Made by a program: the position numbers and the translations under genes | NCBI GenBank assembly: GCA_964354935.1 | Contig: CAYHBT010000002.1 | Location: 19,864-63,509 of the forward strand | Length of the DNA stretch: 43,646 nucleotides | Direction: 5' to 3' | Source: an uncultured Candidatus Saccharibacteria bacterium | GTDB taxonomy: Bacteria; Patescibacteriota; Minisyncoccia; Phycocordibacterales; UBA9973 | The notes under the pieces: model-generated | The model's input: only the letters and a program-made list of their open reading frames with translations | Database searches by the model: none | What the model was told of the DNA's origin: nothing | In this document: piece after piece, positions 1-34,195 of the stretch | Layout: each line of letters starts with the position of its first letter | Position numbering within the stretch: position 1 is the first letter of the stretch

Positions 1-86
1 TGGAAGTGACCCGTTTCCTCCTCGCGGATAAGATTATATCGCAAGAACCGTTCTTGCGAAACTGTTCTTGCGAAACTTTAATCAAA

Positions 87-2777
87 TTATTTCTCTAGAA
101 ATTCCTCGATAATCTTCCCATCCCGTCTGAGCCACGCGACATTGCCTTCTAGGCGCTCGAGGACTTGCAGAATGGCGCGTTTGGCGCCGGGTGCTTCGTG
201 GGTGGCGAAGAATTTTTTGAAAGATTTGAAATGCTTTTCTTCGGCGCTGCCGGAGATAGCTTTGACTAGGCGTTGGAGGGTATGTCCGCCTTCGCCATAC
301 CGTTGGACTAGAGTCTTCCAATTCTTTTGTATGAAGGAGAGCCAAATGTCGCGTCCGGCGGGGTTTGCGCCGACAGATGAGAGAATACTGATGGTGTCTT
401 GCGGGCGGACATTTTTGCTCAAAGCGAATTCGCAGGTTTGAGCCAATAATTTAACATCGGAAAAATCTCCCAAGGCTCCGCCGAGCCTGTTTTTCTCTTC
501 ATGTAAAGTTTCTTTTTTATATTTTTCCAAAAACGCTAGGTATTCTTTTTCTCCGCCCCACTTGGCAACAATGGAATATACCGCCCCGCGAATGTCGGGA
601 TTTATTTTGCCTGTGGCAAATTTTTTCTTTGCCTCGGAAATTATTTTTTCATCGCCAGCGCGTCCGGCGCGGGAAATAGCAAGTGAACGCAGAAGGGTGT
701 CCGTGTGCATTTCATCTCTTTTGGGTGCCCAGCCGAGCCTGCCGGCGAGAGGGGAGAAAAGTTGCAGAATTAACTCATCTAATTTTGATTTCACTTTCTC
801 TTTCACTAGGATTTGCTCGAGTCTGCCGAGACCGCTTGCTAGCTCCAGCCAGACGCTGTAATTATCTTCATTTTTATACGCAGGCAAAAATTCGAGCGCA
901 TCTGTCGTAGGAATCGTGCCGGCTTCCGCCAAGGCAAAAAGGTCGCGAATGATTCCGAGCCTATCGCGAGCGGAGAGTAATTTTTTTTCTACCGGCATTT
1001 TTAATTTTTCTAAAAGCTCTCCTGAATATGCCGTCCTATAAAATCCCGCTTCGCCGAAATTTATTTTGAGCCAATTCAAACCTTCACTTGAAACTACTTT
1101 TTTCGCCGTCGCATCAAAGCCCAAACTCTTTCTTGGCATACTTTTTATAGGGTACAGATATTTTTCTGCTGAAAAATTCTTCCTGCTCGCGCCGCCGCGC
1201 TGCGCAAGCCCCTCTAAAAAGTACGCCTGCGACGAGTTTGGGCTTTTCACTGATATTGGTATTTGCCAAGTAGTTTTGCTTGCCCCGCCATGGCGTGGGT
1301 TTTTTACTTTTTTCGCTGAAATCGGGCTCGCAAAAAATCTTTCTTGCGACAATTTTAATTTATTATCTTTGATTTCTGCTTTCACGACTGGATAGCCCGG
1401 TTTGCTTGTCCAATTACGCATCATTTTTTCTACCGGTTTTTTGGACACTTTCTCAAACGCTTCCCAAAGATGGAAAGTCTCGGTGTTTTTATAACTATGC
1501 TTTTTCAAATAATGGCGCAAGCCGTCGCGGAAATCTTTTTCGCCTAGGTAATCCGCGAGCATACGGATAATAGACGCGCCTTTGGAATATGAAACTTCGT
1601 CGAAAATTTCGCCAATTTCGTCCGGATGATGCACCGGAATTTCAATCGGGTGGGTGTGAAGAAGAGAATCTAATCTAAGTGCTACGCCGAGATCGTTGGT
1701 GGAAAACTGCGTCCAAATATCCCAATGCGGGAAAATTTTATCGACAGCCAAGTACTCTATATATGAAGCAAAGCCTTCGTTTAGCCATAGATGCGTCCAC
1801 CACTGCATCGTCACAAGATTGCCGAACCATTGATGCGCTATTTCGTGAGCGATGACGAGGGCGACCCATTGCTTGTTGCCAATCGACGAATGATCTTCGT
1901 CGACCAAGAGAGCGGACTCGCGGTAAGTGATGGCGCCCCAATTTTCCATTGCGCCGGCGGTGAAATCCGGAATGGCGATCATATCTAAAATTGGCAGAGG
2001 GTAGGGAATATCAAAATAATCATCATAAAAATCCAAAGTTTTTACAGCGCAATCAAGCGCGAACTTCGCCTGATGCTTTTTGCCCGGTGTGGTGAAGACT
2101 CGCACTTGCACTCCGTGTTTTGTCTTTGATTCTATGTATTCAAAATCTCCAATGATAAATGCGAGCAGATAGGTAGACATTATCGGGGTCGGGGAAAATT
2201 TTACAATTTCATATACAGCTTCATGTTCGGCCACCGAGATAGGCAAAGTATTGGAGATAGCTGTCTTGCCTTTTGGCACGATGAGCGAAATATGGAAGAC
2301 GGCTTTTTGCGCCGGCTCGTCGAAGCAGGGAAAAGCTCGGCGGGCGTCCGTGGCTTCGAATTGCGTGGTTGCCATGTGATATTTCTTGTCGCCAACATTA
2401 TATTTACTTCTATAAAATCCGCGCATTTTGTCGTTCAGAACTCCCTTAAAGACTATTGTTAACCTTGTCCCGTTAGAAGTAGAGGGTCGCTGCGAGCCCT
2501 CGCGACTTCTAACGGGATTGGGAAAAGTAAATGTCGCAGTTTCAGATTTTTCATCGTAAGAGATTTTTGCGAAAATCTTGCCTTGCGGAAGTCCGACTTC
2601 CGCGGTTTCAATTTCAATTTCTTTGGAGTGCAAGGTAAGTGTTTTCGTAGGTTTTAAAATATCGAGAGTTATTGTCTCAATTCCCTCAAAAGTGAAATTT
2701 TCCAAATCAGGCTTTAGCTGTATATCGTATTCTTTCGGAACAACATTTTTTGATAAACGGACATTTTTCTTTTGCAT
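87..2777 (-). CDS. pepN: M1-family aminopeptidase N
   Basis: 896-aa ORF with a GAMEN motif and HEIAHQWFGNLV...WLNEGFA zinc site (HEXXH-18-E). Carries GC-rich in-frame inserts at 1185-1212, 1278-1299 and 2469-2516. Confidence 0.9.
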   Translation of the reverse strand: MQKKNVRLSKNVVPKEYDIQLKPDLENFTFEGIETITLDILKPTKTLTLHSKEIEIETAEVGLPQGKIFAKISYDEKSETATFTFPNPVRSREGSQRPSTSNGTRLTIVFKGVLNDKMRGFYRSKYNVGDKKYHMATTQFEATDARRAFPCFDEPAQKAVFHISLIVPKGKTAISNTLPISVAEHEAVYEIVKFSPTPIMSTYLLAFIIGDFEYIESKTKHGVQVRVFTTPGKKHQAKFALDCAVKTLDFYDDYFDIPYPLPILDMIAIPDFTAGAMENWGAITYRESALLVDEDHSSIGNKQWVALVIAHEIAHQWFGNLVTMQWWTHLWLNEGFASYIEYLAVDKIFPHWDIWTQFSTNDLGVALRLDSLLHTHPIEIPVHHPDEIGEIFDEVSYSKGASIIRMLADYLGEKDFRDGLRHYLKKHSYKNTETFHLWEAFEKVSKKPVEKMMRNWTSKPGYPVVKAEIKDNKLKLSQERFFASPISAKKVKNPRHGGASKTTWQIPISVKSPNSSQAYFLEGLAQRGGASRKNFSAEKYLYPIKSMPRKSLGFDATAKKVVSSEGLNWLKINFGEAGFYRTAYSGELLEKLKMPVEKKLLSARDRLGIIRDLFALAEAGTIPTTDALEFLPAYKNEDNYSVWLELASGLGRLEQILVKEKVKSKLDELILQLFSPLAGRLGWAPKRDEMHTDTLLRSLAISRAGRAGDEKIISEAKKKFATGKINPDIRGAVYSIVAKWGGEKEYLAFLEKYKKETLHEEKNRLGGALGDFSDVKLLAQTCEFALSKNVRPQDTISILSSVGANPAGRDIWLSFIQKNWKTLVQRYGEGGHTLQRLVKAISGSAEEKHFKSFKKFFATHEAPGAKRAILQVLERLEGNVAWLRRDGKIIEEFLEK
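2469..2516. repeat. 48-bp GC-rich palindromic element, family A copy 1 (in frame in pepN)
   Basis: Gene-sense sequence is CCCGTTAGAAGTCGCGAGGGCTCGCAGCGACCCTCTACTTCTAACGGG. Encodes PVRSREGSQRPSTSNG. Confidence 0.85.
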
Positions 2778-2783
2778 AGAGAA

Positions 2784-2793
2784 ATGTTAGCAT
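2784..2793. promoter_or_regulatory. Overlapping divergent extended -10-like boxes for pepN and scpA
   Basis: Minus strand: TGCTAACAT, then 6 nt, then the pepN ATG. Plus strand: TGTTAGCAT, then 6 nt, then the scpA GTG. The whole intergenic gap is 22 bp with no SD. Confidence 0.45.
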
Positions 2794-2799
2794 ATAAGG

Positions 2800-3561
2800 G
2801 TGGAAAACCAAATTTTTCAAATAAAAACAACCGGTTTCGAGGGTCCGTTTGGACTTCTTTTAGAGTTGATAGAAAAGCGCAAATTTCATATAAATGATGT
2901 GTCGCTCGCGGCGGTGACGGAAGATTACCTCTCTCATATGAACAAATTGGGTGGCCTTTCTTCGGCGGAGATCGCCAGCTTTGTGTTTGTGGCTTCAACT
3001 CTCATTTTAATAAAGTCAAAATCTTTACTGCCTAATTTAAGTCTGACATCGGAGGAAGAAGGCGACATAAAAAATCTGGAAGAAAGACTTCGCCTGTATG
3101 AACTTTTTACAAAACTCGGAATAAATATAAAAAATAATTTTGGAGAAAAAATAATTTTCGCTCCACTAGAAAGAAAAAATGATGTACTAGTATTTTTGCC
3201 CGACGAGCGGATTACCAAAGAGAGCATGATGGGCTTTGCCAAAACCGTTCTTGGCGCTATGCCTAAAAAAGTATTCTTGCCCGAAGTCGAAGTGCGTAAA
3301 GTTATCAGCATAGAGGAAATGATTAGCAATCTGACAGAGAGAATAAAAACTTCGATCAATATGAGCTTCAAAGATTTTGCGGGTTTACCCGCCGGGGTGG
3401 GCAAAGCGCGGACTCGCGAAGAAAAAGTATTTGTGATTGTCGGATTCCTCGCTATGCTGGAGCTCGTGCGAAACGGAATCTTAGACGCGATTCAGGAAGG
3501 CGGGTTTGCGGACATTATTATTAATAAAGAAGTTCAAAAGATTGAAAACAATGGACAATAA
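2800..3561 (+). CDS. scpA: Segregation and condensation protein A (kleisin)
   Basis: 253 aa, GTG start. N-terminal FEGPFGLLLELIEKRKFHINDVSLAAVTEDYL is typical ScpA. Followed by overlapping scpB. Confidence 0.85.
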   Translation: MENQIFQIKTTGFEGPFGLLLELIEKRKFHINDVSLAAVTEDYLSHMNKLGGLSSAEIASFVFVASTLILIKSKSLLPNLSLTSEEEGDIKNLEERLRLYELFTKLGINIKNNFGEKIIFAPLERKNDVLVFLPDERITKESMMGFAKTVLGAMPKKVFLPEVEVRKVISIEEMISNLTERIKTSINMSFKDFAGLPAGVGKARTREEKVFVIVGFLAMLELVRNGILDAIQEGGFADIIINKEVQKIENNGQ

Positions 3562-4174
3562 TTCAGAATCAAAGATAGATCCCGTTAGAGATCGCGAGGG
3601 CTCGCAGCGACCCTCTATCTCTAACGGGATAGAAGCAATACTTTTTTGGAAAGGCGAACCGATGTCGAGAAAAAAACTCGGAGAAATTTTGAAAACGAGT
3701 GAGGAAGAAATAAATGCTGGTCTGGAAAAATTGAAAGAAAATTTAAACAGTAGGGGAATAGTATTGCAGGAAAACGGAGAAGAACTCGCGCTTGGCACAG
3801 CGCCTGAACTTTCGGAGCTGATTGAGAATCTGCAGAAAGAAGAATTAAATAAAGAACTTTCCAAGGCTAGCTTGGAAACATTATCTATCGTGCTTTATAA
3901 AAACGGAGCGAATAGAGCGGAAATAGACTATATCAGGGGAGTGAATTCCAGTTTCACTTTGCGTGCGCTTTCCATTCGCGGACTGGTGGAAAAAATTCTA
4001 GATCCCAAAGACAGCAGGCGGTATATTTACAAGCCAAGCTTCGAGCTCCTATCTTATATGGGCGTGAAATCAGTGGAAGAACTGCCAGACTTTGGTGAAG
4101 TGAGCGGGTCCATAAACATAGCGGCAAAGAATTTGGAAGAGGAGCAGAAAGAAGAAAATGCAAGCGCAAACTAA
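3551..4174 (+). CDS. scpB: Segregation and condensation protein B
   Basis: IEAILFWKGEPMSRKKLGEIL and a second winged-helix region (LETLSIVLYKNGANRAEIDYIRG). The ATG at 3551 overlaps the scpA stop (ATGGACAATAA); the track ORF start at 3506 is probably an upstream extension. Contains the 48-bp element at 3581-3628. Confidence 0.85.
   Translation: MDNNSESKIDPVRDREGSQRPSISNGIEAILFWKGEPMSRKKLGEILKTSEEEINAGLEKLKENLNSRGIVLQENGEELALGTAPELSELIENLQKEELNKELSKASLETLSIVLYKNGANRAEIDYIRGVNSSFTLRALSIRGLVEKILDPKDSRRYIYKPSFELLSYMGVKSVEELPDFGEVSGSINIAAKNLEEEQKEENASAN
3581..3628. repeat. 48-bp GC-rich palindromic element, family A copy 2 (in frame in scpB)
   Basis: CCCGTTAGAGATCGCGAGGGCTCGCAGCGACCCTCTATCTCTAACGGG. 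Encodes PVRDREGSQRPSISNG. 44/48 identical to copy 1 in gene sense. Confidence 0.85.
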
Positions 4175-5906
4175 ACAATGTCAAAACTGTAAAACAGACT
4201 TCATTATAGAGCCGGACGATTTTGGATTTTATGAAAAGATGAAGGTGCCAGTGCCTACATTTTGTCCGGAATGCCGACGGCAGAGACGAAACGCTTGGCG
4301 GAATACTTTTACTTTGTATTCCCGCAAATGCGATTCCTGCCAAAAATCCGTCATTTCACTTTACGCTCCTACCGCGCCAAAGGACGGGCAAGCTTCCGGT
4401 ATCACTATTTACTGCAACAAATGCTGGTGGAGCGATAAATGGGACGCGAAAAGTTTCGGAGCGGAGTATGATTTTTCTAAACCTTTTTTCACGCAGTTTC
4501 GCGAACTTATCGGCAAAGTGCCACACATTTCTATTGTGAACGACGATGGCATCGCTAGCCTAAATTGCGAATACACGCACGATACTTGGTTTTCAAAAAA
4601 TTGCTATATGGTGTTTTCTTCTTGGCGCATAGAAAATGTTTCGTACAGTTTTTTCATTCTTGCCGGCAAAGATATGATGGACTGTATGAATATCAGGTCC
4701 AAAAATGAATTTTTGTACGAATGTGTGCGTTGCGCTACCTCATATAAATTAACACATTCTCAACAATCAAAAGATTGCATAGAATCATCGTTTCTTGCTG
4801 ACTGCCTAAACTGCTCAAATTGTTTTATGTGTTGCGGGTTGCGCGGAAAAAAATACCATTTTAAAAATAAACAATATTCTAAAGAAGAATACGAAAAAAT
4901 CTTAAAAGATCATCGGTTGGATACTTTTTCTGGAGTTGAAAACACAATAAAAGAATTCGATTCTTTTATTTCTACACAAATTCAACGATATGCTCACAAT
5001 TTTCATAATGATTTGAATGTTATCGGTGAAGAAATTTCTAACTCGAAAAATATAAAAAATTGCTTTGGAATAAAAAAATCAGAAAACTGTCGATATTGCG
5101 ACTTCGGCTCGAACGACAAAGAATGCTATGACCTAGTGATGACAGGGGAATCTTCAGAGTGCTATGAGGTGGCTACTGCTGACCAATCCCAACTGAATCT
5201 TTTTGCTGTTTTTTCGGTGAAAAGCCAAGATGTGCGTTACACTCAGCATTGTCATAATTGCAGGCATTGTTTTGGTTGCGTCGGTCTGCGCGATGCAAGT
5301 TACTGTATTTTTAATAAACAATACACAAAAGAAGAATATGAAACGCTGGTGCCGAAAATAATTGAGCAGATGAACAAAATGCCTTTCGTTGATCGCATAG
5401 GAAATTCCTATGCGTATGGAGAATTTTATCCGATAGAACTTTCGCCGTTTGGCTACAATGAAACTCTTGCCATGGAAGATGTCGCGTTCTCAAAAGAAGA
5501 AGCGCAGAAGAGGGGATTTGGCTGGCAGGACAATATTCAACGCACGACGGGCAAGGAAACGCTCAAGCCTGAAAATATTCCGGAGTCCATAGACGAAATA
5601 GGGGATTCAATCTTAGATGAAGTGCTCGCCTGCATCGATTGCAAAAGAAATTACAAAATTGTTCCAAACGAACTTATTTTTTATCGGAAAATGAAAATCC
5701 CTATTCCGCGCCGATGTTTTTATTGCCGTCATGCGAACAGGCTGAAAAAGAGAAATCCGTTCAAACTTTGGCATAGGCAATGTATGTGTGAAAAAAAGCA
5801 CGCACATCACGAAGAACAATGCGACATAGAATTTGAAACAACTTACGCGCCGGAGCGGCCAGAAATTATTTATTGTGAGAAGTGTTATCAGCAGGAAGTG
5901 TACTAA
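4158..5906 (+). CDS. Cys-rich protein of unknown function with zinc-ribbon modules at both termini (paralog 1)
   Basis: 582-aa ORF. N- and C-terminal CxxC..FY.KM..P.P..C..CR modules and two internal halves, each ending C.NC..CF.C.GLR...NKQY[ST]KEEYE. Clear paralog of 34992-36728. Start overlaps the scpB end. Confidence 0.8.
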   Translation: MQAQTKQCQNCKTDFIIEPDDFGFYEKMKVPVPTFCPECRRQRRNAWRNTFTLYSRKCDSCQKSVISLYAPTAPKDGQASGITIYCNKCWWSDKWDAKSFGAEYDFSKPFFTQFRELIGKVPHISIVNDDGIASLNCEYTHDTWFSKNCYMVFSSWRIENVSYSFFILAGKDMMDCMNIRSKNEFLYECVRCATSYKLTHSQQSKDCIESSFLADCLNCSNCFMCCGLRGKKYHFKNKQYSKEEYEKILKDHRLDTFSGVENTIKEFDSFISTQIQRYAHNFHNDLNVIGEEISNSKNIKNCFGIKKSENCRYCDFGSNDKECYDLVMTGESSECYEVATADQSQLNLFAVFSVKSQDVRYTQHCHNCRHCFGCVGLRDASYCIFNKQYTKEEYETLVPKIIEQMNKMPFVDRIGNSYAYGEFYPIELSPFGYNETLAMEDVAFSKEEAQKRGFGWQDNIQRTTGKETLKPENIPESIDEIGDSILDEVLACIDCKRNYKIVPNELIFYRKMKIPIPRRCFYCRHANRLKKRNPFKLWHRQCMCEKKHAHHEEQCDIEFETTYAPERPEIIYCEKCYQQEVY

Positions 5907-13174: not shown

Positions 13175-14170
13175 ATGAGTACAAAAACAGCCGTCCAGCC
13201 GATAACCAAATATATCCTTCCCTTTCTAGATTACTGCGAAGTTGAGAAAGGGTTATCGAACAACACCCAACGCAACTACGAGCAATATCTCAAACTATTT
13301 GTGGGCTGGCTAAAAAAAACAAATAAAGAAAATCTTTTACCGCACGAGTTAACAGCCGAACATATTTGGGATTATCGTTTGTATTTGGCTCGAACTTATA
13401 TAACTCGTAATGGTGGATATTTGGGTAAGAAATCTCAAAATTATTACCTGATCGCTTTGCGAGCGCTTCTTGATTTTCTCGCCGACCGCGATATTCAAAT
13501 ACTTCCTTCTTCTAAAATAAAATTGGCTAAGCAAAAGACAGACGAGACTATCTCCTTTCTCGATACGCGTGATGTCGAAGCTATGCTAAAGATTCCCGAT
13601 ACAAAAACTCCAGCCGGTCTTCGGGACCGTTCCATAATGGAATTATTCTTTTCATCTGGTATGCGTATTTCGGAATTGGTAGCTCTGGATGCTGACCGCG
13701 TATCCTTCTTGAAGGACAAAAATTCGAAGCGCACCTTTGAACTTTCGATTGTTGGTAAAGGTCGCCATGTACGAACCATCTTCATTTCTCCTCGTGCCGC
13801 GCAGTGGCTACGCACTTATCTCGCATCTCGTAAAGATATGGAGAAGCCACTTTTTGTAAATATAAAATCTGGTGGAAATAAAAATATAAAAAAAGATGAT
13901 GATCATCGCCTCACTAATAGGTGGATACAAAAGATGATTTCAAAATGCGCATTGCTTGCGGGGATTTCCAAAAAAGTGACTCCCCACACGCTTCGCCATA
14001 CTTACGCCACCGATCTTTTGGGTAATGGAGCTGACTTACGAAGCGTACAAGAACTTTTGGGTCACAAGAATGTATCTACCACTCAAATATACACTCATGT
14101 GACCAATAAGGGCCTTAGAGACATCCACGAAAAATTTCATGGCGGAAAGGAAATTGATAATAATAAATAA
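13175..14170 (+). CDS. Tyrosine recombinase, XerC/XerD-like
   Basis: C-terminal HTLRHTYATDLL...LLGHKNVSTTQIYTHV (R-H-R-Y catalytic motifs) and an N-terminal SAM-like core-binding domain. Confidence 0.85.
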   Translation: MSTKTAVQPITKYILPFLDYCEVEKGLSNNTQRNYEQYLKLFVGWLKKTNKENLLPHELTAEHIWDYRLYLARTYITRNGGYLGKKSQNYYLIALRALLDFLADRDIQILPSSKIKLAKQKTDETISFLDTRDVEAMLKIPDTKTPAGLRDRSIMELFFSSGMRISELVALDADRVSFLKDKNSKRTFELSIVGKGRHVRTIFISPRAAQWLRTYLASRKDMEKPLFVNIKSGGNKNIKKDDDHRLTNRWIQKMISKCALLAGISKKVTPHTLRHTYATDLLGNGADLRSVQELLGHKNVSTTQIYTHVTNKGLRDIHEKFHGGKEIDNNK

Positions 14171-17704: not shown

Positions 17705-17756
17705 CCTCACCCGCCTTCGGCACCCTCTCCTTGACAAGGAGAGGGTTAGGGAGAGG
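17705..17756. repeat. Nested-hairpin element, family B copy 1 (at the mrdA 3-prime end)
   Basis: CCTCACCCGCCTTCGGCACCCTCTCCTTGACAAGGAGAGGGTTAGGGAGAGG. Inner stem CCCTCTCCTT/AAGGAGAGGG, side hairpin GCC-TTCG-GGC. Confidence 0.8.
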
Positions 17757-19754: not shown

Positions 19755-21101
19755 TTACCTCGAAGCCAGCTTGGACGCCAGTCCGGTGTAATTTTCCGGA
19801 GTGATTTTTAGGAGCTCTTTTTTTATTTTTTCGCTGACTTCGAGAGCATCTATGAATTTATGGATATCAGCGAGTGTCACATTTTTGCCACGCGAAAGCT
19901 CTTTTAATTTTTCATATGGCATTTCTACGCCTTCGCGGCGGAGAATAGTCTGAATGGCTTCGGTGATGACTTCCGGATGAGCATTTAAATCTTCTTTTAT
20001 TTTTTCTTCATTCACTTTTATTTTGCTTAAACCTTTCAAAAGTGAAGTGTAAGCCAAATACGAATGCCCAAATGCGGTGCCGAACGCGCGTTCGACTGTA
20101 GAATCCGACAGGTCGCGCTGAAGCCGAGAAATTGGAAGCTTGCGGGCGAAAAATTCAAACAAAGCGTTTGCAATGCCGAGGTTGCCCTCGCTATTTTCAA
20201 AGTCAATCGGATTTATTTTATGAGGCATTGTGGAGGACCCCGTCTCCCCCGCTTTCGGTATTTGCCCTACCCAGCCGTCGGAAATATATCTCCATATGTC
20301 TTGATTAAAATCTAAAAGAATCGTATTTATTCTTCGGATTGTGTCAAAAACAGTCACATAACTATCATGACATTCGATTTGAGTAGTGATTAGATTAGGT
20401 TCTAATTTTAAATTTTTTATAAATTTTTCACCAAATCCAATCCAATTTATATTTGGATAAGCGGCGATGTGAGCATTGTAATTACCGGTTGCGCCGTTTA
20501 ATTTGGCTTGTATTTTTATATTTGAAATCGCTTCAAGTTGCTTTTCAATTCTACAAACAAACACCTTCATTTCTTTTCCGAAAGTTGTTGGGCTGGCAGA
20601 TTGACCATGAGTACGCGCGAGCATCGGCAGGTCTTTGTGTTTTTTTGCAAGATTATTTAATTCTAAAATAATTTCAGAAATTTTAGGCATCATCACTTTT
20701 CCTAAAGAGTCAGACAAAATAAGCGCGTAAGCGATGTTGTTCGTATCTTCTGAAGTCAGAGCAAAATGCACCCATTCGATGCTGTCTTTGAGAGAAGTTT
20801 TCGAAAGATTTTCCTTTATAAAATACTCCACCGCCTTCACATCGTGATTGGTTGTTTTTTCAAATTCTTTTATTTTCTCATAAGAAGCGGTGTCGAATTT
20901 TTCGTAAATATTCTTGACAATTTTTATTTCTTCCGGCGCAAATTTTCTTAAGTTGGTTTTTCCTAAAAAAGATAGTGCTATCAGATATTCGCATTCCACT
21001 TTCACTCTATATTTCATCAGCGCTTCTTCGGAAAAAAACGGCGCGAGGGCGCGAGTCTTTTCAAAATATCTTCCGTCTAGTGGGTTTATTGCGGTTTCCA
21101 T
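19755..21101 (-). CDS. purB: Adenylosuccinate lyase
   Basis: 448 aa with the fumarate-lyase signature GSSTMPHKINP. Pur cluster context. Confidence 0.9.
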   Translation of the reverse strand: METAINPLDGRYFEKTRALAPFFSEEALMKYRVKVECEYLIALSFLGKTNLRKFAPEEIKIVKNIYEKFDTASYEKIKEFEKTTNHDVKAVEYFIKENLSKTSLKDSIEWVHFALTSEDTNNIAYALILSDSLGKVMMPKISEIILELNNLAKKHKDLPMLARTHGQSASPTTFGKEMKVFVCRIEKQLEAISNIKIQAKLNGATGNYNAHIAAYPNINWIGFGEKFIKNLKLEPNLITTQIECHDSYVTVFDTIRRINTILLDFNQDIWRYISDGWVGQIPKAGETGSSTMPHKINPIDFENSEGNLGIANALFEFFARKLPISRLQRDLSDSTVERAFGTAFGHSYLAYTSLLKGLSKIKVNEEKIKEDLNAHPEVITEAIQTILRREGVEMPYEKLKELSRGKNVTLADIHKFIDALEVSEKIKKELLKITPENYTGLASKLASR

Positions 21102-21103
21102 AA

Positions 21104-22042
21104 TTATATCGTATATTTTTTTAAATTATTTTCTATTCTTTTTTCAATATCTCCGGTTTCAATTTTAAAAGTGTCTCCGGTGATTTGCTCATATATTTGG
21201 ATATATCTGCGGGAAAGTTCTTCCACCATCTCCGCTGGCGCTTTTGGCAAGACCTCGTCTTTGTAGGGGTCGGAATTCTCTTTGAACCATAAACGCAGGA
21301 ATTCTTTGTCGAAATTCTCCGGCTCGAGGCCTTTTGCGATTCTCTCCTCATATGTTTTTGCCTGCCAGTATCTGGAAGAATCCGGCGTATGAATTTCATC
21401 AACCAGCATTATTTCTCCCTCCGGCGTGACTCCAAATTCATACTTTGTATCCACTAAGATAAGTCCGTGTTTTAAGGCTACCTCTTGCCCTCTTTGAAAT
21501 AACTTCAAAGCGATAACGGAAATTTTCTCCCATTGATCTTTGGTCATATGTCCGCCGTAGACTATATCTTTGCTGGAGAGTGGTTTGTCGTGTTCTTCAG
21601 ACTTGGTGGTCGGCGTCAGCACCACTTTTTCTAATTTTTGATTTTTATGCATACCGTCCGGCAAAATAAAATCTCCAAAATTCCGCTCCCCTTTTTGATA
21701 AAGCGTCCACAAGCTGGTGCCGGTAATTCCCGTAATATAACCGCGCACTACCATCTCCACGGGTATGACTTTGCATTTTTTGCCAATCACTACATTTGGG
21801 TCCGGAAAATCGATGATGTGATTTTTCACTATATCTTTCGTCTGTTCAAACCAAAAACGGCTGACTCCGGTCAGCACTTGGCCTTTCGAGGGTATCAAGG
21901 CTAGATTGCGGTCAAAAGCGGAATATCTGTCGGTGGAAATCAAAATAACCTTGTCGCTTTGGCTGTACACATCCCGCACTTTTCCCGTGTATTTTTCTCC
22001 TAAGTTTTTAAAATTTGTTCTCTCTAAAATGTTTGTATTCAT
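21104..22042 (-). CDS. purC: SAICAR synthetase (long form)
   Basis: 312 aa with GKVRDVY, ISTDRYSAFD and LVDTKYEFG motifs. Confidence 0.9.
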   Translation of the reverse strand: MNTNILERTNFKNLGEKYTGKVRDVYSQSDKVILISTDRYSAFDRNLALIPSKGQVLTGVSRFWFEQTKDIVKNHIIDFPDPNVVIGKKCKVIPVEMVVRGYITGITGTSLWTLYQKGERNFGDFILPDGMHKNQKLEKVVLTPTTKSEEHDKPLSSKDIVYGGHMTKDQWEKISVIALKLFQRGQEVALKHGLILVDTKYEFGVTPEGEIMLVDEIHTPDSSRYWQAKTYEERIAKGLEPENFDKEFLRLWFKENSDPYKDEVLPKAPAEMVEELSRRYIQIYEQITGDTFKIETGDIEKRIENNLKKYTI

Positions 22043-22064
22043 TTTATTAAAAAATTATTAATAA

Positions 22065-23198
22065 TTATTTTCCGGGAGGTGTGAGAATTATTTTTTCTGG
22101 CTCGAAAATTACTTGTCGCTGATTCTCTTTGCCTTTTTCTACAATGCCGATATCCGCGAGTTCGTATCCTTCATTTTTGCCTATTTTCAATATTTTAGCA
22201 ACTTCTTCTCTTGGCGCAAAAATATAGTAACCCACACCCCAATTAAAAGTCTTAAGACAATCTATTGTCGGCACTTTGAGTATTTTGTGAAAATATTCCA
22301 TCAGTGGCGGAATTTTTAGCCACGAATGAATTCTGTAAGTGAAAGGTCTTTTATCAAAAGCGATTTTACCGACTCCATCTCCAGTACCGGGTAGGAGTGT
22401 GTGAATTTTCACTTTAGATGCAAGTAGGGCTTCTACAAGCGCAACATATGAACGAGTCGGAATCAACGCTTCCTCGCCGATAGTATTTCCATTTGGAATT
22501 TTCGTGAGAAATTGTTCGGGAAGTTCTAGGGTTTTTTTGATAACTAGACTTATGCCGTTGGCGTGCAGTCCCGAAGAAGCTACGCCGATGATGTGGTCGC
22601 CCACAGACAAATCCTGCCCGGTAATTAAATTTTCTTTGGGCGCGACGATGCCGATCACCGAGCCGCTCAAGGCTGCAATTTCAGTTACTGGGGGTTTGGG
22701 ATTAATCAAATATGTCACGCTTGCCGATTCTCCTGCCGGCAAAGCCATGCCGACTTCTTCGCAAATTTTAAAAAAGCCGTTCGCAAAATCCTGCGCTCTT
22801 TTTTTGTCGGCATACCAAGCGCTACCGCTCGCTTCCAGCTGGTCTGTAAAAACTACCGGCATCGCGCCTTGAGCAATGACATCGTTTACCACAATCAATG
22901 CAGTATCGATAGCAATAGAGTCATAATAAGACTTACCTGTTTTTTGATACATCCATTCGGCGATCCAGTTTTTATTTCCCAAATCTTCTTGCGTCTGGCA
23001 CCAGATTATAGATTCCTTACCGAGATATTCAAAAACCGCGCCGTGCGCGTGTGTCGCATCTTCATTTATATAGACTCCCCTTTTGTTCGGAAATTTAAGA
23101 GTTTTCTTCCCCGCTTCTATCATTGCCATCTTAAATGGTTCCATCACCGTATAGTCCACACCAGCTTTTGCATATTCGCTTTGTGGTTTAGTTGCCAT
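22065..23198 (-). CDS. purM: AIR synthetase (divergent PurM-like)
   Basis: 377 aa. YAKAGVDY N-terminus and IDTALIVVNDVIAQGAMPVVFTD resemble the PurM dimer/ATP motifs. Position between purE and purC fits. Confidence 0.7.
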   Translation of the reverse strand: MATKPQSEYAKAGVDYTVMEPFKMAMIEAGKKTLKFPNKRGVYINEDATHAHGAVFEYLGKESIIWCQTQEDLGNKNWIAEWMYQKTGKSYYDSIAIDTALIVVNDVIAQGAMPVVFTDQLEASGSAWYADKKRAQDFANGFFKICEEVGMALPAGESASVTYLINPKPPVTEIAALSGSVIGIVAPKENLITGQDLSVGDHIIGVASSGLHANGISLVIKKTLELPEQFLTKIPNGNTIGEEALIPTRSYVALVEALLASKVKIHTLLPGTGDGVGKIAFDKRPFTYRIHSWLKIPPLMEYFHKILKVPTIDCLKTFNWGVGYYIFAPREEVAKILKIGKNEGYELADIGIVEKGKENQRQVIFEPEKIILTPPGK

Positions 23199-23200
23199 TT

Positions 23201-23722
23201 TTATTTGCTTTCCAGATATTTTTTAAATCCGATTTTTAAAAGTTTCTCTCCCTTGGCTTCCGTATCTTCTGCGAGTTTCTTTTTATATGCAATTAATTTT
23301 TTTTCTAAATCCGTAGCCGATGTTGCAAGTATTTGCACGGCGAGCAGTCCGGCGTTTTTTCCGGCGTTAATACCGACAGTTGCCACCGGCACGCCAGGGG
23401 GCATCTGTGCGGTGGAAAGCAATGAATCAAGGCCGTCTAATGTTTTTGCTTTTGTCGGTATGCCAATGACGGGCAAAGTCGTGAGCGATGCCACTACTCC
23501 GGCAAGATGCGCCGCGCCTCCCGCTCCGGCGATGAAAACTTTGATATTGTGTTCGCCTGCTCCTTTGACTAGTTTATTCACATATTCAGGGCTTCGATGC
23601 GCCGAAGCGACAGTCATATCATAAGGCACGCCGAATTCTTCAAGCACTTTCGCCGCTTCGGACATTATTTCCAAATCCGTATCCGAGCCCATAATTATCA
23701 TTACTTTTGGGGTTTTTTTCAT
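23201..23722 (-). CDS. purE: N5-CAIR mutase (class I PurE motifs)
   Basis: SAHRSP and AGGAAHLAGVVAS match class I PurE (SAHRTP / AGGAAHLPG) rather than class II (SAHK / AGRSNGLG). Confidence 0.9.
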   Translation of the reverse strand: MKKTPKVMIIMGSDTDLEIMSEAAKVLEEFGVPYDMTVASAHRSPEYVNKLVKGAGEHNIKVFIAGAGGAAHLAGVVASLTTLPVIGIPTKAKTLDGLDSLLSTAQMPPGVPVATVGINAGKNAGLLAVQILATSATDLEKKLIAYKKKLAEDTEAKGEKLLKIGFKKYLESK

Positions 23723-23728
23723 AAAACT

Positions 23729-23737
23729 ATATTAGCA
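23729..23737 (-). promoter_or_regulatory. Extended -10-like box 6 nt before the purE ATG
   Basis: Minus strand TGCTAATAT-agtttt-ATG. Confidence 0.4.
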
Positions 23738-23760
23738 TAAAAGAAAATTATTCCAAATTC

Positions 23761-24465
23761 TTATTTCTTGTTATTACTTATATCACTTGCGGTAAAACTA
23801 CCCATCTCTGGATTTATCTTTGTTCTTGAGAAATAAAGACGCCTATTATTATTGTTGTAATAAATTTCATCTGTGGTAAAAGAGGATTTTTTGGGACCAT
23901 TTACAATGACTGGTTCAAATCCAAGATTTTGCTTGATTTGAGACGAAAGGAAATTTATTGAATCTAGGTATTGTTGTCGATCATGTTCTGAATCTTCAGG
24001 ATAATTTCCTCCAACGATAACAGCGTCAATCGTCCCTGGAATGCATCTCTCTTTAATTTCAGACAAACTTTTTTCTAAGCCAGATTTAAAATCCTCTTTC
24101 TTTGGATTAAACAAAAAGAAACTTGGATCCTGATGGCTCAAGAATGAGATAGGATTTCCATTTTCCTTTTCTATTCCAGCGACGACTAATCCCGTGCATC
24201 TAAAAAAATCTAAAGAAAATTTATTTAAACTGTCTATTGTAGATATTACACATTGAGCACCTTCGGTCTGTAAAAATTGCTTATCTGCGTTTCCTCTAAC
24301 ATCGTTGTATTTTACATTATGTCCTTCAGGGGGATAATCCTCATCAATAAATAGTCCTATTTCGTCTTGTGTTCCTAGGCACACATAAATGGGCTTTACT
24401 CCCTCAATTAAATGTTTTGAAAGTTTCTTTGCCTCTGGTTGATTTATATTCAATGTTTCATTCAT
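23761..24465 (-). CDS. Uncharacterised protein embedded in the pur operon (orf234)
   Basis: 234-aa ORF with host-like composition. The pattern C-TGLVVAG..(20)..H then IDAVIVGGN then N..L....LGF remotely resembles CheD-type Cys/His deamidases. No firm family assignment. Confidence 0.6.
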   Translation of the reverse strand: MNETLNINQPEAKKLSKHLIEGVKPIYVCLGTQDEIGLFIDEDYPPEGHNVKYNDVRGNADKQFLQTEGAQCVISTIDSLNKFSLDFFRCTGLVVAGIEKENGNPISFLSHQDPSFFLFNPKKEDFKSGLEKSLSEIKERCIPGTIDAVIVGGNYPEDSEHDRQQYLDSINFLSSQIKQNLGFEPVIVNGPKKSSFTTDEIYYNNNNRRLYFSRTKINPEMGSFTASDISNNKK

Positions 24466-24504
24466 AAATATATAATATCATAAGTTATTTTATTTTTAAA
24501 AATT

Positions 24505-24559
24505 AAAAAAGCCAGTACTTGTGATTTGTATCACCTCCTTTCGGTTGTACTGGCTTTTT
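24505..24559 (-). terminator. Intrinsic terminator with an unusually large structured loop
   Basis: GCCAGTAC (24511-24518) pairs with GTACTGGC (24547-24554), flanked by A6 and T5 tracts. The loop contains a GTGAT-ACAA-ATCAC mini-hairpin and ATCACCTCCTTTC. Confidence 0.7.
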
Positions 24560-24564
24560 GGGGT

Positions 24565-24768
24565 TTAGTCCATGTGGGGACCAACCAATTCCTCCTCCTT
24601 GTCCACCACAAAACCACCCACCGTGATGGTGGTGGTTTCGGCCCGCTGCTGGGGAGGGGGCGGTGACGATATATCGCTCGTCACCATACTCTCGGCGCCC
24701 AAAGCGGCGAGAGCATGCATCGCCGCGTCCACTTTAGACGCGGCGATGATGACTTCAAGTTTTTTCAT
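24565..24768 (-). CDS. GC-rich 67-aa ORF with a PII(GlnB)-like N-terminal half; possibly a gene remnant or not coding
   Basis: MKKLEVIIAASKVDAAMHALAALGAESMVTSDI aligns by eye with PII MKKIxAII.P.KLDxVxxAL...G...MTVTEV. Strong G at codon position 1 and high GC3. Only 67 aa, no SD, and full of perfect hairpins. Confidence 0.4.
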   Translation of the reverse strand: MKKLEVIIAASKVDAAMHALAALGAESMVTSDISSPPPPQQRAETTTITVGGFVVDKEEELVGPHMD

Positions 24769-24859
24769 CGTATTAGTTTGGTTGAAGGGCTCCCTCGTTT
24801 GTTGATTTTAAAGAGCCCTGATTCAACAAGAGACTAGCATAAGTTCACCTTTCTTTCAA

Positions 24860-26398
24860 TTAGTGTTTAAAATGTCTAAATCCTGTCGTGACCATCGCTA
24901 TTTTGTATTTATTCGCCATATCTATCGAAGCTTGATCGTTTTTTGAGCCTCCGGGTTGGATAACTGCTTTGATGCCGACTTTGCCTGCGAGTTCCACACA
25001 ATCAGGAAAAGGGAAAAACGCTTCAGAAGACATCACTGCGCCTTTTAGGGAGAATTTAAACCTTTTCGCTTTATCTATAGCTTGTTTCAAAGCATCTATG
25101 CGTGAAGTCTGCCCGCAACCCATAGAAATAAGCGCGCCGTTTTTTACCAGCGCTATCGCATTTGATTTTAAATGTTTGGTTGCTACCGCGGCAATGAGCA
25201 TATCTGCTATTTCTTTTTTTATCGGTTTTCTTTTTGTAACTGTCGAGAGGTCGGACTCCTTTTCTACTTGCGTGTCGCGGTCTTGCGAAAGAGTTCCCGT
25301 AAAACAAGTTCGCGTTTGTTTTTGTGGCAATGTCGGAGTCTGCCATTTTAAGACCCGAACATTTTTCTTTTCTTTGAAAATTTCGAGAGCCTCCTTGCTA
25401 AAATCCGGCGCGATGATGACTTCCACAAAAAGCTCTTGTTTTTTTATGAGCTTGGCGATATCTTCGCCTACTTCCCTATTTGCCGCAAGTATTCCGCCAA
25501 AGGCTGAAACTGGGTCAGCTTTGTATGCCTCTTTGTAAGCCTTGAATATGTCTTTTTGCACGGATAGACCGCAAGCATTCATATGCTTGATAATAGCGAA
25601 AGCAGGCTCTTTAAAATCGTAAACGACAGAAATAGCCGCTTCTGTGTCTATGAAATTGTTATAAGAAAGCTCTTTGCCGTGAAGTTGGATAAAACTTTTT
25701 TCAAGATTGCCTATAAATTCAGCCTTTTGGTGTGGATTTTCGCCGTAACGAAGATTTATTTTCGTGTCGTTTTGCCCATAGGTCAGACCTATGGAATCCA
25801 CAGGTCTGACCTGTGGGCAGGTAAAGTAGTTTCGAATAGCCGTATCGTATTCGCTCGTTACTTCAAACGCATCACCAGCCATTTTTTTGCGTTCTTCTAG
25901 GGTTGTCTCTATCCCCCTTTTTAATATTGAAGTTAATTCTTTGTATTGATTTTTTGAAGGAATCACGACAACATCGTTAAAATTTTTCGCCGCCGCGCGG
26001 ATAAGAGCAATACCGCCGATGTCTATTTTTTCAATAATCTCATCGGCGGTTCCGCCTTTCGCCAAGGTTTCCTCAAACGGATAAAGGTCGACGATGACCA
26101 AATCAATATCTTCTATTTTGTGTTTTGCTTTTTCTTTTTGGTCGTCGCTATTATCTCGGCGATTTAAAATTCCGCCAAAAATTTGCGGTTGTAATGTCTT
26201 TACTCTTCCGCCAAAAACTGCGGGGAAATTTGTGACAGTTTCTACTTCAGTCACAGCTACACCCAATTTCCGTATAAATTCCGCCGTCCCGCCAGTAGAA
26301 ATAATTTTCACCTTATGTTTAGCAAGGAGTCTGACGATCTCTTCGAGACCGTCTTTATTAAAAACCGAAATTAAAGCCGAGCTAATTTTTTTTGTCAT
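24860..26398 (-). CDS. purH: Bifunctional AICAR transformylase / IMP cyclohydrolase
   Basis: 512 aa with an MGS-like N-domain (ALISVFNKDGL...STGGTA) and an AICARFT C-domain. Carries a tandem palindrome insert at 25776-25816. Confidence 0.9.
   Translation of the reverse strand: MTKKISSALISVFNKDGLEEIVRLLAKHKVKIISTGGTAEFIRKLGVAVTEVETVTNFPAVFGGRVKTLQPQIFGGILNRRDNSDDQKEKAKHKIEDIDLVIVDLYPFEETLAKGGTADEIIEKIDIGGIALIRAAAKNFNDVVVIPSKNQYKELTSILKRGIETTLEERKKMAGDAFEVTSEYDTAIRNYFTCPQVRPVDSIGLTYGQNDTKINLRYGENPHQKAEFIGNLEKSFIQLHGKELSYNNFIDTEAAISVVYDFKEPAFAIIKHMNACGLSVQKDIFKAYKEAYKADPVSAFGGILAANREVGEDIAKLIKKQELFVEVIIAPDFSKEALEIFKEKKNVRVLKWQTPTLPQKQTRTCFTGTLSQDRDTQVEKESDLSTVTKRKPIKKEIADMLIAAVATKHLKSNAIALVKNGALISMGCGQTSRIDALKQAIDKAKRFKFSLKGAVMSSEAFFPFPDCVELAGKVGIKAVIQPGGSKNDQASIDMANKYKIAMVTTGFRHFKH
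25776..25816. repeat. Tandem pair of related 19-bp palindromes in frame in purH
   Basis: CCATAGGTCAGACCTATGG-AAT-CCACAGGTCTGACCTGTGG. Encodes PQVRPVDSIGLTYG. Confidence 0.8.
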
Positions 26399-26407
26399 TA
26401 TGCAGAG

Positions 26408-26416
26408 ATATTAGCA
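26408..26416 (-). promoter_or_regulatory. Extended -10-like box 9 nt before the purH ATG
   Basis: Minus strand TGCTAATAT-ctctgcata-ATG, the same 9-mer as upstream of purE. Confidence 0.4.
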
Positions 26417-26427
26417 TAATTTAATTT

Positions 26428-27960
26428 TTACTCAAATTCCGTCGTAGCCGGAGGTTTGGGGGTCATATCGAAAAATACGCGGACGATGTCTTTGTGTTTG
26501 GTGAGAGCGCTAGTTATTTCTTCCACGACGGACTGCGGGAAATAAAAACCTTTTGCCGTCATAAAGTCTACGGTTTGCACAGCGCGGATGGCAAGCGAAT
26601 GGCCATAGACTCTTTCATCGCCTTTCACGCCGACGGAGTTGACGCCGAGGAGGGCGACGATGAGTTGGGAAATATTTTTGTCGATGTTGTGTTTTTTAAG
26701 AATATCGCTGACGGTTTTGTCCGCTTCGCGCACTAGCTCGATATTTTCTTTGGTGACTGGGGTGCCTACAACTCGCAAATATAATCCCGGACCCGGAAAA
26801 GGATTTCTTTCATAGACTGCCGACGGAAGTTTGAGGGCTTTTGCTAGTTCGCGGACTTCGTATTTAAATAAGTTGCGGAATGGGTGCAGGTCGTCGACTT
26901 TCCAGTCTAGTCCGACATTGTGGTGCGTTTTAATCATCATAGACTCCCCCGCTTTTCCACTTTCTATGATGTCTGTGGCAAGAGTTCCTTGCACGATGAA
27001 TCCGGCTTTATATTTGGCGATCTGCTCTTCAAAAATCTTTTTGTAAACTTCTCGAAATTTTCCGCGTTTTTCTTCACCGTCTATCGTGGTACCGATGTTT
27101 TTAATAAATTCTTTTTCAGCCGGAATAATTATCAGATTTTTTACGCCCGCGCTTTTTGCATTCGCCTTTATTTCCTCAAATTCTTGAGCTCGCACTCCGC
27201 CTGTATCAATAGCGACGCAGATTAATTTTTCTTTTAAAACCGGAGCGAGGACAGCCGCTAGGGTCGTTGAATCCACTCCGCCGGAAAAACCCAAAATTAA
27301 ATTCTTTTTCTCTGCTAGACTGACGACACCTAAAACTTCTTTTTGAATTTCTTTAATTAAATTTACAGGATCCCAATCAGCTTTACATCCAGCTAGATCC
27401 AAAAAATTCCGCAATATCTTTTTTCCCTCTTTGGTGTGGGCAACTTCCGGATGAAATTGAATTCCGAGCACCCGATTGTTTTTATTCGCCATCGCGGCAA
27501 TGCCACCGGAGGTGGCGATTTCTGTAAAACCTTTCGGAAGTTTAGTCACGGTATCTCCGTGACTTGCCCAGACTTGAGTTTTTTCCGATACGCCGAGAAA
27601 AAGCGGATGAGTGGTTTCGGGCGTCACTTCCGCTGGCCCGTATTCGCGGTGCGCGAGTGGTCGTTCGACTTTCCCACCGAGAGAATTCGCCAAAAGCTGC
27701 ATACCATAACATATTCCGAGGACCCTGTATTCTTTTCCATCGCTATCAAGCGTTTTCGGAAGCCCCGGGGCGCCTTCGTTGTGTACGCTCCAATTACTGC
27801 CGGAAAGAATGACCGCTTTTGGAGTATCATTTTTGAGCCACATTTCTGCTTTCTTTGGCGGCAGTATCACACTTCGCACCCCGAGCTCCCGCAGAGTTCT
27901 GCCGATGACCAGCGTATATTGCGACCCGTAATCCACGATAAGGATTTGTATATCATTCAT
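26428..27960 (-). CDS. guaA: GMP synthase (glutamine-hydrolysing)
   Basis: GATase ICYGMQ, ATP-PPase SGGVDS, and a C-terminal KPPATTEFE. Confidence 0.9.
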   Translation of the reverse strand: MNDIQILIVDYGSQYTLVIGRTLRELGVRSVILPPKKAEMWLKNDTPKAVILSGSNWSVHNEGAPGLPKTLDSDGKEYRVLGICYGMQLLANSLGGKVERPLAHREYGPAEVTPETTHPLFLGVSEKTQVWASHGDTVTKLPKGFTEIATSGGIAAMANKNNRVLGIQFHPEVAHTKEGKKILRNFLDLAGCKADWDPVNLIKEIQKEVLGVVSLAEKKNLILGFSGGVDSTTLAAVLAPVLKEKLICVAIDTGGVRAQEFEEIKANAKSAGVKNLIIIPAEKEFIKNIGTTIDGEEKRGKFREVYKKIFEEQIAKYKAGFIVQGTLATDIIESGKAGESMMIKTHHNVGLDWKVDDLHPFRNLFKYEVRELAKALKLPSAVYERNPFPGPGLYLRVVGTPVTKENIELVREADKTVSDILKKHNIDKNISQLIVALLGVNSVGVKGDERVYGHSLAIRAVQTVDFMTAKGFYFPQSVVEEITSALTKHKDIVRVFFDMTPKPPATTEFE

Positions 27961-29488
<1,528 letters not shown>

Positions 29489-29494
29489 AATTTT

Positions 29495-30814: not shown

Positions 30815-30816
30815 CC

Positions 30817-30880
30817 TTGCGTTAGATCTTGCCTAACGCAACAAAAAACCACAATAGCAACGGCCGTTGCTATTGTGGTT
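30817..30880. terminator. Convergent terminator region (two hairpins)
   Basis: TTGCGTTAG-ATCTTGC-CTAACGCAA (30817-30841), then the perfect 34-bp palindrome AACCACAATAGCAACGG|CCGTTGCTATTGTGGTT (30847-30880). The latter has an A6 tract on one side, which is a T tract for the minus-strand operon. Confidence 0.8.
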
Positions 30881-30891
30881 TAAGGAAGGTT

Positions 30892-34192: not shown

Positions 34193-34195
34193 AGA

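Follow-up and report, generated by a model that had tools for sequence, protein, structure and literature searches.

Why should two unrelated genes of one bacterium carry, in frame, nearly the same long palindrome? The question is raised by a stretch of 43,646 nucleotides from an uncultured Candidatus Saccharibacteria bacterium of the Patescibacteria (contig CAYHBT010000002.1, assembly GCA_964354935.1), called the window below, in which an initial annotation, made from the sequence alone, noticed two copies of a 48-bp palindrome, one in an aminopeptidase gene and one in scpB. We consider it likely that both 48-mers represent copies of a transposable element of the Patescibacteria (Paceibacteria), one that is miniature and non-autonomous and forms a hairpin. 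The element inserts at R-TNNA-Y-like sites, duplicating the central 4 bp, and displays the hallmarks of a transposon: terminal inverted repeats, the 4-bp duplication, copies that lie dispersed, nested, in tandem or flipped, empty sites that are seamless, and covariation between the two arms. The features involved are the following.

2468..2517, minus strand: element copy A, a 50-nt hairpin with triplets AGT/ACT, scoring 81.6 bits with the covariance model of the element
3580..3629, plus strand: element copy B, a 50-nt hairpin with triplets GAT/ATC, scoring 82.3 bits with the covariance model
3576..3579, plus strand: left TAGA of the target-site duplication of copy B, from the comparison of empty and filled sites
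3630..3633, plus strand: right TAGA of the same duplication, from the same comparison
87..2777, minus strand: host 1, an M1-family aminopeptidase (Peptidase_M1_N, Peptidase_M1, ERAP1_C)
3551..4174, plus strand: host 2, scpB (SMC_ScpB), with its ATG at 3551 and its start codon overlapping the end of scpA
2800-3561: scpA, the upstream neighbour, overlapped by the start of scpB

Two copies of one hairpin in unrelated genes

A pattern search with the 48-mer returns exactly two matches in the window, at 2469-2516 (minus strand) and 3581-3628 (plus strand), where the initial annotation had placed them, and none in 100 dinucleotide shuffles. The two sequences are identical at 44 of 48 positions. Read in the sense of its host gene, the aminopeptidase copy is CCCGTTAGA-AGT-CGCGAGGGCTCGCAGCGACCCTCT-ACT-TCTAACGGG and the scpB copy is CCCGTTAGA-GAT-CGCGAGGGCTCGCAGCGACCCTCT-ATC-TCTAACGGG. 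The four mismatches fall at positions 10-11 (AG versus GA) and 38-39 (CT versus TC), which pair with each other, and both 12-bp outer stems remain perfect; the differences are indeed, as first described, two reciprocal compensatory swaps. Both copies form the same hairpin as RNA and as DNA, the 12-bp outer stem leading through a small internal loop to a short hairpin inside. Folding energies are -29.0 and -29.4 kcal/mol for RNA (z = -5.6 and -6.0) and -16.0 and -15.8 kcal/mol for DNA. The palindrome is therefore real, but its extent was slightly underestimated: it continues by one pair at each end (T 3580/A 3629 in scpB, 2468/2517 in the aminopeptidase gene), and this additional T...A pair makes the unit 50 nt long, not 48.

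Both copies lie in the sense orientation and in frame 0 of their hosts, an agreement that was rightly noted at the outset, although it is weak evidence when taken alone because four of the six readings of the element lack stop codons. Rfam covariance models give no match at gathering score across the whole window, a tRNA scan of the window finds none, and the covariance model of the element reveals no further diverged copies there. The density of the canonical element is thus two copies in 43.6 kb.

Orthologues of the two hosts allow us to see the sites with and without the insert. ScpB of the window reads MDNNSESKID[PVRDREGSQRPSISNG]IEAILF... Among the 119 anchored relatives listed, the site is filled in about 22, which read ...K-ID[PVRxREGSQRPSISNG]IEAILF... 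with the insert at exactly the same position, and empty in about 97 (...K-IEAILF...), proportions that are biased towards filled alleles since the query by which these relatives (the top 120) were obtained itself contains the element. At the DNA level, the empty scpB site of syntenic relatives reads AAA ATAGAA GCG in a Nomurabacteria genome (L051) and in a metagenome assembly without taxonomic label (L053), and AAG ATTGAA GCG in another such assembly (L054), whereas the filled site of the window reads ATAGA-T[48]A-TAGA-A. From this comparison the insert amounts to 50 nt plus a duplicated TAGA, or 54 nt, a multiple of three. It ends one residue before the Pfam ScpB domain, which begins at residue 27. 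A copy in reverse orientation occupies the site in one relative (P0021/L052). On the ScpB tree, relatives with and without the insert are intermingled, at least 13 changes being required to account for their distribution, and the nearest relatives of the window in this tree have an empty site.

The aminopeptidase insert (...TFPN[PVRSREGSQRPSTSNG]TRL...) occurs in the window protein only, being absent from all 119 other orthologues listed, which carry FPK(I/N)IPxGKxKL at the insertion site. It aligns to a loop gap in puromycin-sensitive aminopeptidase, and an AlphaFold model of the N-domain presents it as a coil (residues 90-103, pLDDT of about 53) between strands 80-89 and 104-113. Both sites therefore show presence/absence polymorphism among orthologues, and the initial annotation was correct in regarding the 16 residues as inserted rather than native: most orthologues lack them, empty-site DNA is seen, and further copies exist elsewhere. 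Its proposal that the inserts avoid conserved motifs also holds, since one lies in a low-confidence loop of the AlphaFold model and the other directly before the Pfam ScpB domain.

The two host proteins have other peculiarities. The M1 aminopeptidase is strikingly near the eukaryotic puromycin-sensitive aminopeptidase (E = 3e-228, with a nearly full-length alignment). It contains a second, larger in-frame insert (window 1116-1246, residues ~510-553) with 37-nt inverted arms that are 81% complementary; orthologues have various unrelated inserts of 30-60 aa at this place (SFLAQLFIKQSISQSFGSELLGYPPAQGFLK, KKLLEINFLRGLASGGEPISGFFKLQKIRTDKKFD, QKHFLSRLSQAVEPRRSDFSAEKYATAKKVVS) or nothing at all, and the place thus has the look of a hotspot where other repeat families insert. 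Two GC-rich mini-palindromes of 21 nt (minus strand, 1278-1298 and 1185-1205) are translated as PRHGGAS and AQRGGAS, the former being present in some aminopeptidase orthologues and missing from most. Comparable short inserts, SAQAGL and SAQGGSASGG, are found in some ScpB orthologues. The mini-palindromes may represent another family of tiny in-frame inserts.

A family of elements in Patescibacteria genomes and metagenomes

We scanned one genome per species (596 Gb in total) with the exact 20-nt inner core of the element, for which about one chance match is expected. At least 50 matches were obtained, 49 of which are full-length copies, all in metagenome-assembled genomes (MAGs) of Patescibacteria labelled Nomurabacteria, Paceibacterota, Giovannoni-, Vogel-, Taylor- and Yanofskybacteria or Minisyncoccia; the one match that is not an element lies in an Anaerolineaceae contig. 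The search for the 48-mer elsewhere that the initial annotation had suggested has thus returned at least 49 further full copies. The core is absent from viral contigs, hence no sign of a phage vector. Outside the core fixed by the search, the copies are near-invariant except at four pairs, namely the triplet 10-12 (RRY) with its partner 37-39 (RYY), and the terminal Y...R pair. All eight RRY variants are seen, and the opposite arm is the exact complement in all copies but one, which has a G.T pair. Two-sided changes at pairs 1-50, 11-40, 12-39 and 13-38 are found in 9, 7, 12 and 10, respectively, of 25 distinct sequences; 97.5% of alignment cells are paired, and no shuffle matches the observed covariation score. 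The covariation first noticed between the two window copies is therefore general across copies of the family, in which GGC is the dominant triplet overall.

Hosts of canonical copies are unrelated housekeeping genes, encoding several proteins of replication and repair (DNA polymerase I (PolA), NAD-dependent ligase (LigA), UvrD, RuvB and methylpurine glycosylase) together with GreA, TsaD/TsaB (three times), Sua5 (two sites), Ddl, the glutamate racemase MurI (three times), RluA-type synthases, M17 (PepA) and M1 aminopeptidases, PPDK, the ribosomal proteins L25 and L32, a P-type ATPase, an ECF S-component and two prepilins. About 10 canonical copies are intergenic or fall within short open reading frames (ORFs) only. 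A search of 5.8 billion proteins with the four readable translations of the element (queries of at least 40 aa, E <= 10) gave eight weak matches, with GatC, RuvC and HMA hosts, from which nothing follows about prevalence. Two contigs of one Yanofskybacteria MAG (L041 and L044) both terminate inside the same element copy, with matching flanks; here the repeat seems to have broken the assembly.

The canonical element is one subfamily among many. When only the ends were specified, in the form CCCGTTAGARRY-N20-50-RYYTCTAACGGG, metagenomes yielded at least 120 loci with at least 137 elements of 42-120 nt, which have 133 different interiors; three of the 137 resemble the window subfamily. Longer relatives sharing the same ends are also present in labelled genomes of the candidate phyla radiation (CPR), another name for the Patescibacteria. 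The family consensus can be written Y-CCCGTTAGA-RRY-[interior]-RYY-TCTAACGGG-R. Its terminal inverted repeat of 13 bp occurs in all copies and encloses an interior that differs between subfamilies, the interior of the window subfamily being the 24-nt CGCGAGGGCTCGCAGCGACCCTCT. At 42-120 nt, such elements are too short for an enzyme gene. The triplets are perfectly complementary in 73 of 85 ends-only elements, compared with about 11 expected, and this was not required by the search; the terminal pair is complementary in 81 of the 85. In other subfamilies, the mini-hairpins of the interior keep their pairing through compensatory changes (L098 versus L121; L104 versus L122).

How the elements are flanked is equally informative. 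A 4-bp direct repeat with consensus T-N-R-A occupies positions -5..-2 and +2..+5 and is perfect in 29 of 50 canonical copies. Position by position, the two 4-mers agree in 40, 37, 46 and 44 of these 50 copies (36, 12, 23 and 32 expected) and in 78, 73, 65 and 77 of the 85 elements of the independent ends-only set (56, 34, 26 and 54 expected). In the canonical copies, the base at -1 can always pair with that at +1 and neither is duplicated, which makes them part of the element. Preferred targets are R-TNNA-Y-like (GTTTAC/GTAAAC, ATGAAT/ATTCAT, GTCAAC/GTTGAC), with TTAA a minority among TNNA duplications, which also include TAAA, TCAA and TTTA. The terminal Y/R pair correlates with the class of target (p = 0.0005). 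No significant association links the variable triplet to the flanking 4-mer (permutation p = 0.10), and we reject targeting by a guide sequence for this reason. Targeting of start codons was also considered because ATG appears in many flanks, but ORF mapping assigns these mostly to internal Met codons.

Elements have also inserted into and beside one another. In locus L146 (6776-6897), one element is nested within the TAAA of another; L159:6003-6400 is a tandem array of three 107-nt copies and one of 59 nt, with a single GTCAAC at each junction; and L132:12-117 holds two identical adjacent copies. Degenerate copies are found in four ScpB relatives (P0006, P0014, P0015, P0106) and two metagenome loci (L136, L138). 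One family member lies inside a bacterial 23S rRNA gene (L087:3177-3240, gene 1-4324), and family elements may account for some of the short rRNA insertions of CPR. The same rRNA gene has about 1.4 kb of other insertions, including an ORF for a LAGLIDADG endonuclease.

Translation, conservation and rival explanations

Are the copies within genes translated, or are they removed from the message? About 80% of genic canonical copies share sense and frame: with orthologous sites collapsed, approximately 24 are in sense frame 0, four in antisense frame 0 and three in antisense frame 1. The frame reading CC-CGT-TAG is not used by any. PVRxREGSQRPSxSNG is the peptide given by the orientation and frame that occur most often. 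In the ends-defined set, a long ORF reads through 70 of the 137 elements, and the length is divisible by three in 66 of these 70; the other 67 show no such bias (27 divisible by three). The 55 copies located in ORFs of at least 150 aa are distributed over frames 0, 1 and 2 as 32, 23 and 0. Lengths in multiples of three and avoidance of the TAG frame argue that genic copies are translated, not removed. In their hosts, the translated copies take the form of an added loop at the surface, a tail at one terminus or a segment of a leader, and those within ORFs persist only when the added length is a multiple of three and the frame avoids TAG. Seven candidates for ORF-interrupting copies, which would need splicing or bypass, were noted; the four that we inspected proved to be at gene ends or in intergenic positions.

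Many of the frame-1 copies are found in prepilin leaders, as GFT[PLE...LTG]FTLIE (L033:525-1988, L110, L161, L070, L102 and others). The preferred target GTTTAC encodes the G-F-T of the prepilin cleavage motif, and the insert sits upstream of the duplicated motif that adjoins the mature N-terminus (FTLIE); it would thus be removed with the leader if prepilin peptidase cuts the motif copy beside FTLIE. These copies indicate that target preference and selection can together yield recurrent insertions at one site.

The transposable nature of the element rests on the combination of inverted repeats, a duplication with a single-copy empty site, small size without a transposase, and dispersed, polymorphic copies. 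Several observations nevertheless weigh against this interpretation in its simplest form. Resident copies have kept their sequence much better than is expected of an element that is purely selfish and decaying. We compared 12 pairs of orthologous copies from seven site groups over 42 non-variable element positions and 240-nt flanks: 10 of the 12 pairs keep 41 or 42 of the 42 positions, most pairs all 42, and one keeps 38, with flanks that are 56-79% identical in 11 pairs and 93-95% in one close pair. In seven filled scpB alleles from divergent lineages, 14-16 of the 16 third-codon positions within the element are the same, when those of the next 35 scpB codons match at 10-22 of 35 only. The two 4-mers of the duplication have diverged from each other in four of these seven alleles (TTGA, TAGA, TCGA), so that at least those insertions are old, though the element itself has hardly changed. 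The same discrepancy is seen over the 50 canonical copies, where duplicated 4-mers differ at about 16% of position pairs and element positions not fixed by the search are about 1% off consensus. Over 428 kb of loci, the covariance model detects no accumulation of copies in decay. All of the roughly 22 scpB copies have an AAT or GAT triplet, which suggests that they share descent or spread by allele transfer, rather than having been inserted afresh each time. The interiors are nearly all different (133 of 137), which is unusual for a family made by recent copying. The aminopeptidase copy stands as an insertion, but not as a clean one: no clean duplication flanks it, and it has taken the place of about 19 nt of the loop present ancestrally. 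Finally, the window contains no transposase or autonomous partner, its only recombinase being a XerC/D-like tyrosine recombinase (13175-14170), and a search of all fetched loci (~1.2 Mb) for end-like 9-mers paired 130-4000 nt apart disclosed no long autonomous element with matching ends. The few long end pairs with matching flanks involved the end of a separate short element or were chance-like.

How could so short a DNA be moved? The persistence length of DNA is about 150 bp. At 50 bp, a duplex cannot bend enough for its ends to meet, and the arms covary, which makes a folded hairpin or cruciform the probable substrate. We propose that an enzyme acting in trans would cut and paste the element by 4-nt staggered cuts at TNNA-like sites, probably on the extruded hairpin or cruciform. 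In the folded form, each stem would recreate a duplex end only with complementary arms, and complementarity itself would be the selected trait. Such a substrate would explain why three pairs, presumed not to be contacted, are free in sequence and not in pairing, why stable mini-hairpins are favoured in the interior, and why the elements are so short. Copies would probably be lost through precise excision, or because slippage from one 4-bp repeat to the other skips the palindrome.

The conservation of the element, together with compensatory changes in the interiors, points to a constraint on the folded nucleic acid and not on the peptide. Copies might be conserved in place because damage to them is costly to the host for as long as the enzyme is active, because the hairpin serves the host, or through concerted evolution. 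A bolder and rather doubtful extension of the transposon interpretation is that of CPR-wide micro-transposons in which the folded hairpin is the mobile or recognised form and resident copies are actively kept intact inside essential genes; the constraint could then lie in a conserved enzyme, acting in trans, through which mutated copies become harmful, or in a function of the hairpin for the host. If true, this would explain at once the invariant ends, the covarying triplets, the structured yet hypervariable interiors and a conservation far above that of host synonymous sites.

Is the hairpin rather a functional motif, such as a protein binding site on DNA or mRNA, held by purifying selection at each locus? 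It may have spread by transposition and now be kept up by the host or on its behalf, beyond being tolerated. The near-invariance of synonymous positions in the element, where synonymous sites of the hosts are near saturation and the flanking duplications have diverged, is what such selection would leave, as are the restriction of variation to the 3-bp triplet and the terminal pair, through compensated transitions, and the compensatory changes in the interior mini-hairpins of other subfamilies. We nonetheless find this explanation unlikely, given that the site is empty in most orthologues, the closest ones included, that positions follow no common logic (loops, tails, leader peptides, intergenic DNA, rRNA), that degenerate copies exist, that no Rfam family matches and that density is low. 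Movement as single-stranded DNA by an HUH/Y1 enzyme, in the manner of IS200/IS605-type PATE or REP/RAYT-type elements, appears quite improbable. Enzymes of this kind recognise folded hairpins, and selection on the hairpin structure, the very short length and the TTAC-like sequence adjoining many copies (the GTTTAC targets) would suit them. Yet such systems have neither target-site duplication nor terminal inverted repeats, both of which are present here, so identity with PATE or REP/RAYT elements fails on their defining features; nor do we see the correlation between triplet and flanking 4-mer expected of a guide mechanism.

Alternatively, the element might be untranslated, being removed from the mRNA or bypassed by the ribosome like the 50-nt gap of T4 gene 60 and the mitochondrial byps, with the duplicated 4-mer supplying matching take-off and landing codons. 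The likeness to bypass elements is real: these are mobile, hairpin-forming inserts of about 50 nt within essential coding sequences, with short flanking repeats, and the 50-nt length, flanking repeat and very stable hairpin seen here recall the known examples (bioRxiv 10.1101/2022.08.31.505936); a structure-dependent removal would also predict conservation at the nucleotide level. Bypass elements, however, break the frame or carry stops, whereas genic copies of our element are frame-compatible (66 of 70 divisible by three, none in the TAG frame), stop-free and evidently read through. As no ORF-interrupting copy is convincing, the take-off codon is not followed by a stop codon, and left and right 4-mers are often unequal (ATT GAT versus ATA GAA), we hold bypass or removal to be very improbable. 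The least tenable proposal is that the 16 residues are native to both proteins, or that their similarity is an artefact of assembly or chimerism. It is effectively excluded by the empty sites in orthologues of both hosts, by the presence of the same nucleotide string in more than 20 unrelated genes and by its recurrence in assemblies from many independent projects.

Relation to known elements and significance

The initial annotation likened the palindromes to Rickettsia palindromic elements (RPEs), and the comparison is apt as far as behaviour is concerned. RPEs are palindromic repeats found in frame in unrelated housekeeping ORFs of a bacterium with a reduced genome, and also in intergenic DNA (PMC10969869). 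Like them, our element colonises unrelated ORFs in frame, adds a peptide at permissive surface positions and has intergenic copies too. RPEs, however, measure about 100-150 bp and are confined to Rickettsia, while the element is 50 nt long and resides in Patescibacteria; the two are set apart here by description, not by sequence alignment. To our knowledge, RPEs have no defined terminal inverted repeat plus target-site duplication. The present element differs in having a 13-bp inverted repeat, a 4-bp duplication, covarying triplets and many interiors. In behaviour, it is the closest counterpart yet to RPEs.

Structurally, the nearest comparison is with MITEs, or miniature inverted-repeat transposable elements, such as Correia, Nezha, Chunjie and intragenic ERIC. 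These are likewise small, non-coding and present in multiple dispersed copies; they have terminal inverted repeats, duplicate their target site, insert into one another or in tandem, and now and then make a fusion in frame. By its structure, our element is a MITE in every respect examined other than a known autonomous partner. Unlike usual MITEs, our elements are far shorter, so short that a duplex could not join its two ends, and have no known cognate insertion sequence; their interiors are nearly all different between invariant ends, their arms covary, and their conservation exceeds the neutral expectation. The piggyBac transposons have a 4-bp duplication of the TTAA type, inverted repeats that start with CCC, and seamless empty sites (PMC10813416). 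The 4-bp TTAA-like duplication (TNNA here), CCC-starting ends and seamless empty sites of our family recall piggyBac elements and those of its relative among prokaryotes, IS1380, a resemblance only, as the family has an additional Y/R pair between the duplication and CCC and a looser target than TTAA. The window holds no transposase of the piggyBac/IS1380 type, host genomes beyond the window not having been searched for one.

Integron attC sites, too, fold into hairpins whose paired ends are conserved and whose centre varies. Their core sites read 5'-RYYYAAC ... GTTRRRY-3' and occur in cassette arrays, and the heptamers GTTAGAR and YTCTAAC of our element resemble GTTRRRY and RYYYAAC. The order is GTT...AAC instead of AAC...GTT, however, and the elements are solitary, are flanked by target-site duplications and lie inside ORFs; identity with attC sites therefore fails on core-site order, solitary placement and location in ORFs. 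We found no prior description of such elements in CPR in the full-text literature, most subscription journals being outside the search. The family is apparently undescribed: a MITE-like micro-transposon that behaves like RPEs.

The window has several further features of interest. A GC-rich palindrome of 58 nt (32181-32238, ACCTCACCCCGCC...GGGGGTGAGGT) sits in the PurN-PurD linker of a fused protein, where it is read in frame as TSPPTPLLNKERGAEGGV, and a related hairpin, ACCCTCTCCTTGACAAGGAGAGGGT, is found just downstream of a penicillin-binding protein gene (17722-17746). Two diverged paralogous ORFs of about 580 aa (4158-5906, plus strand, and 34992-36728, minus strand), with many CxxC pairs and no Pfam match, underlie the long inverted repeats I1-I3 of the window; the former is syntenic beside scpB in relatives. 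A near-complete purine biosynthesis cluster extends from 19755 to 39674 and comprises PurB, PurC, PurM, PurH, GuaA, GuaB, PurA, PurN-PurD, PurF, PurQ and PurL, which is notable for a CPR-type genome.

What do these elements mean for the Patescibacteria? The genomes of this group are thought to be small, streamlined and poor in mobile DNA. Here is a widespread family of 42-120 nt that lodges inside essential genes and prepilin leaders of CPR and, at one locus, inside a 23S rRNA gene, and from which some of the hitherto unexplained insertions and differences in length of CPR proteins and rRNA can be derived. The elements can serve as markers of strain and lineage history, and are a likely cause of assembly breaks. 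They constitute a second, independent case of the phenomenon described for RPEs, this time with clear transposon hallmarks, which RPEs are not known to have and which make the mechanism testable. The family thereby poses a sharp question: how is a 50-nt DNA mobilised and kept intact?

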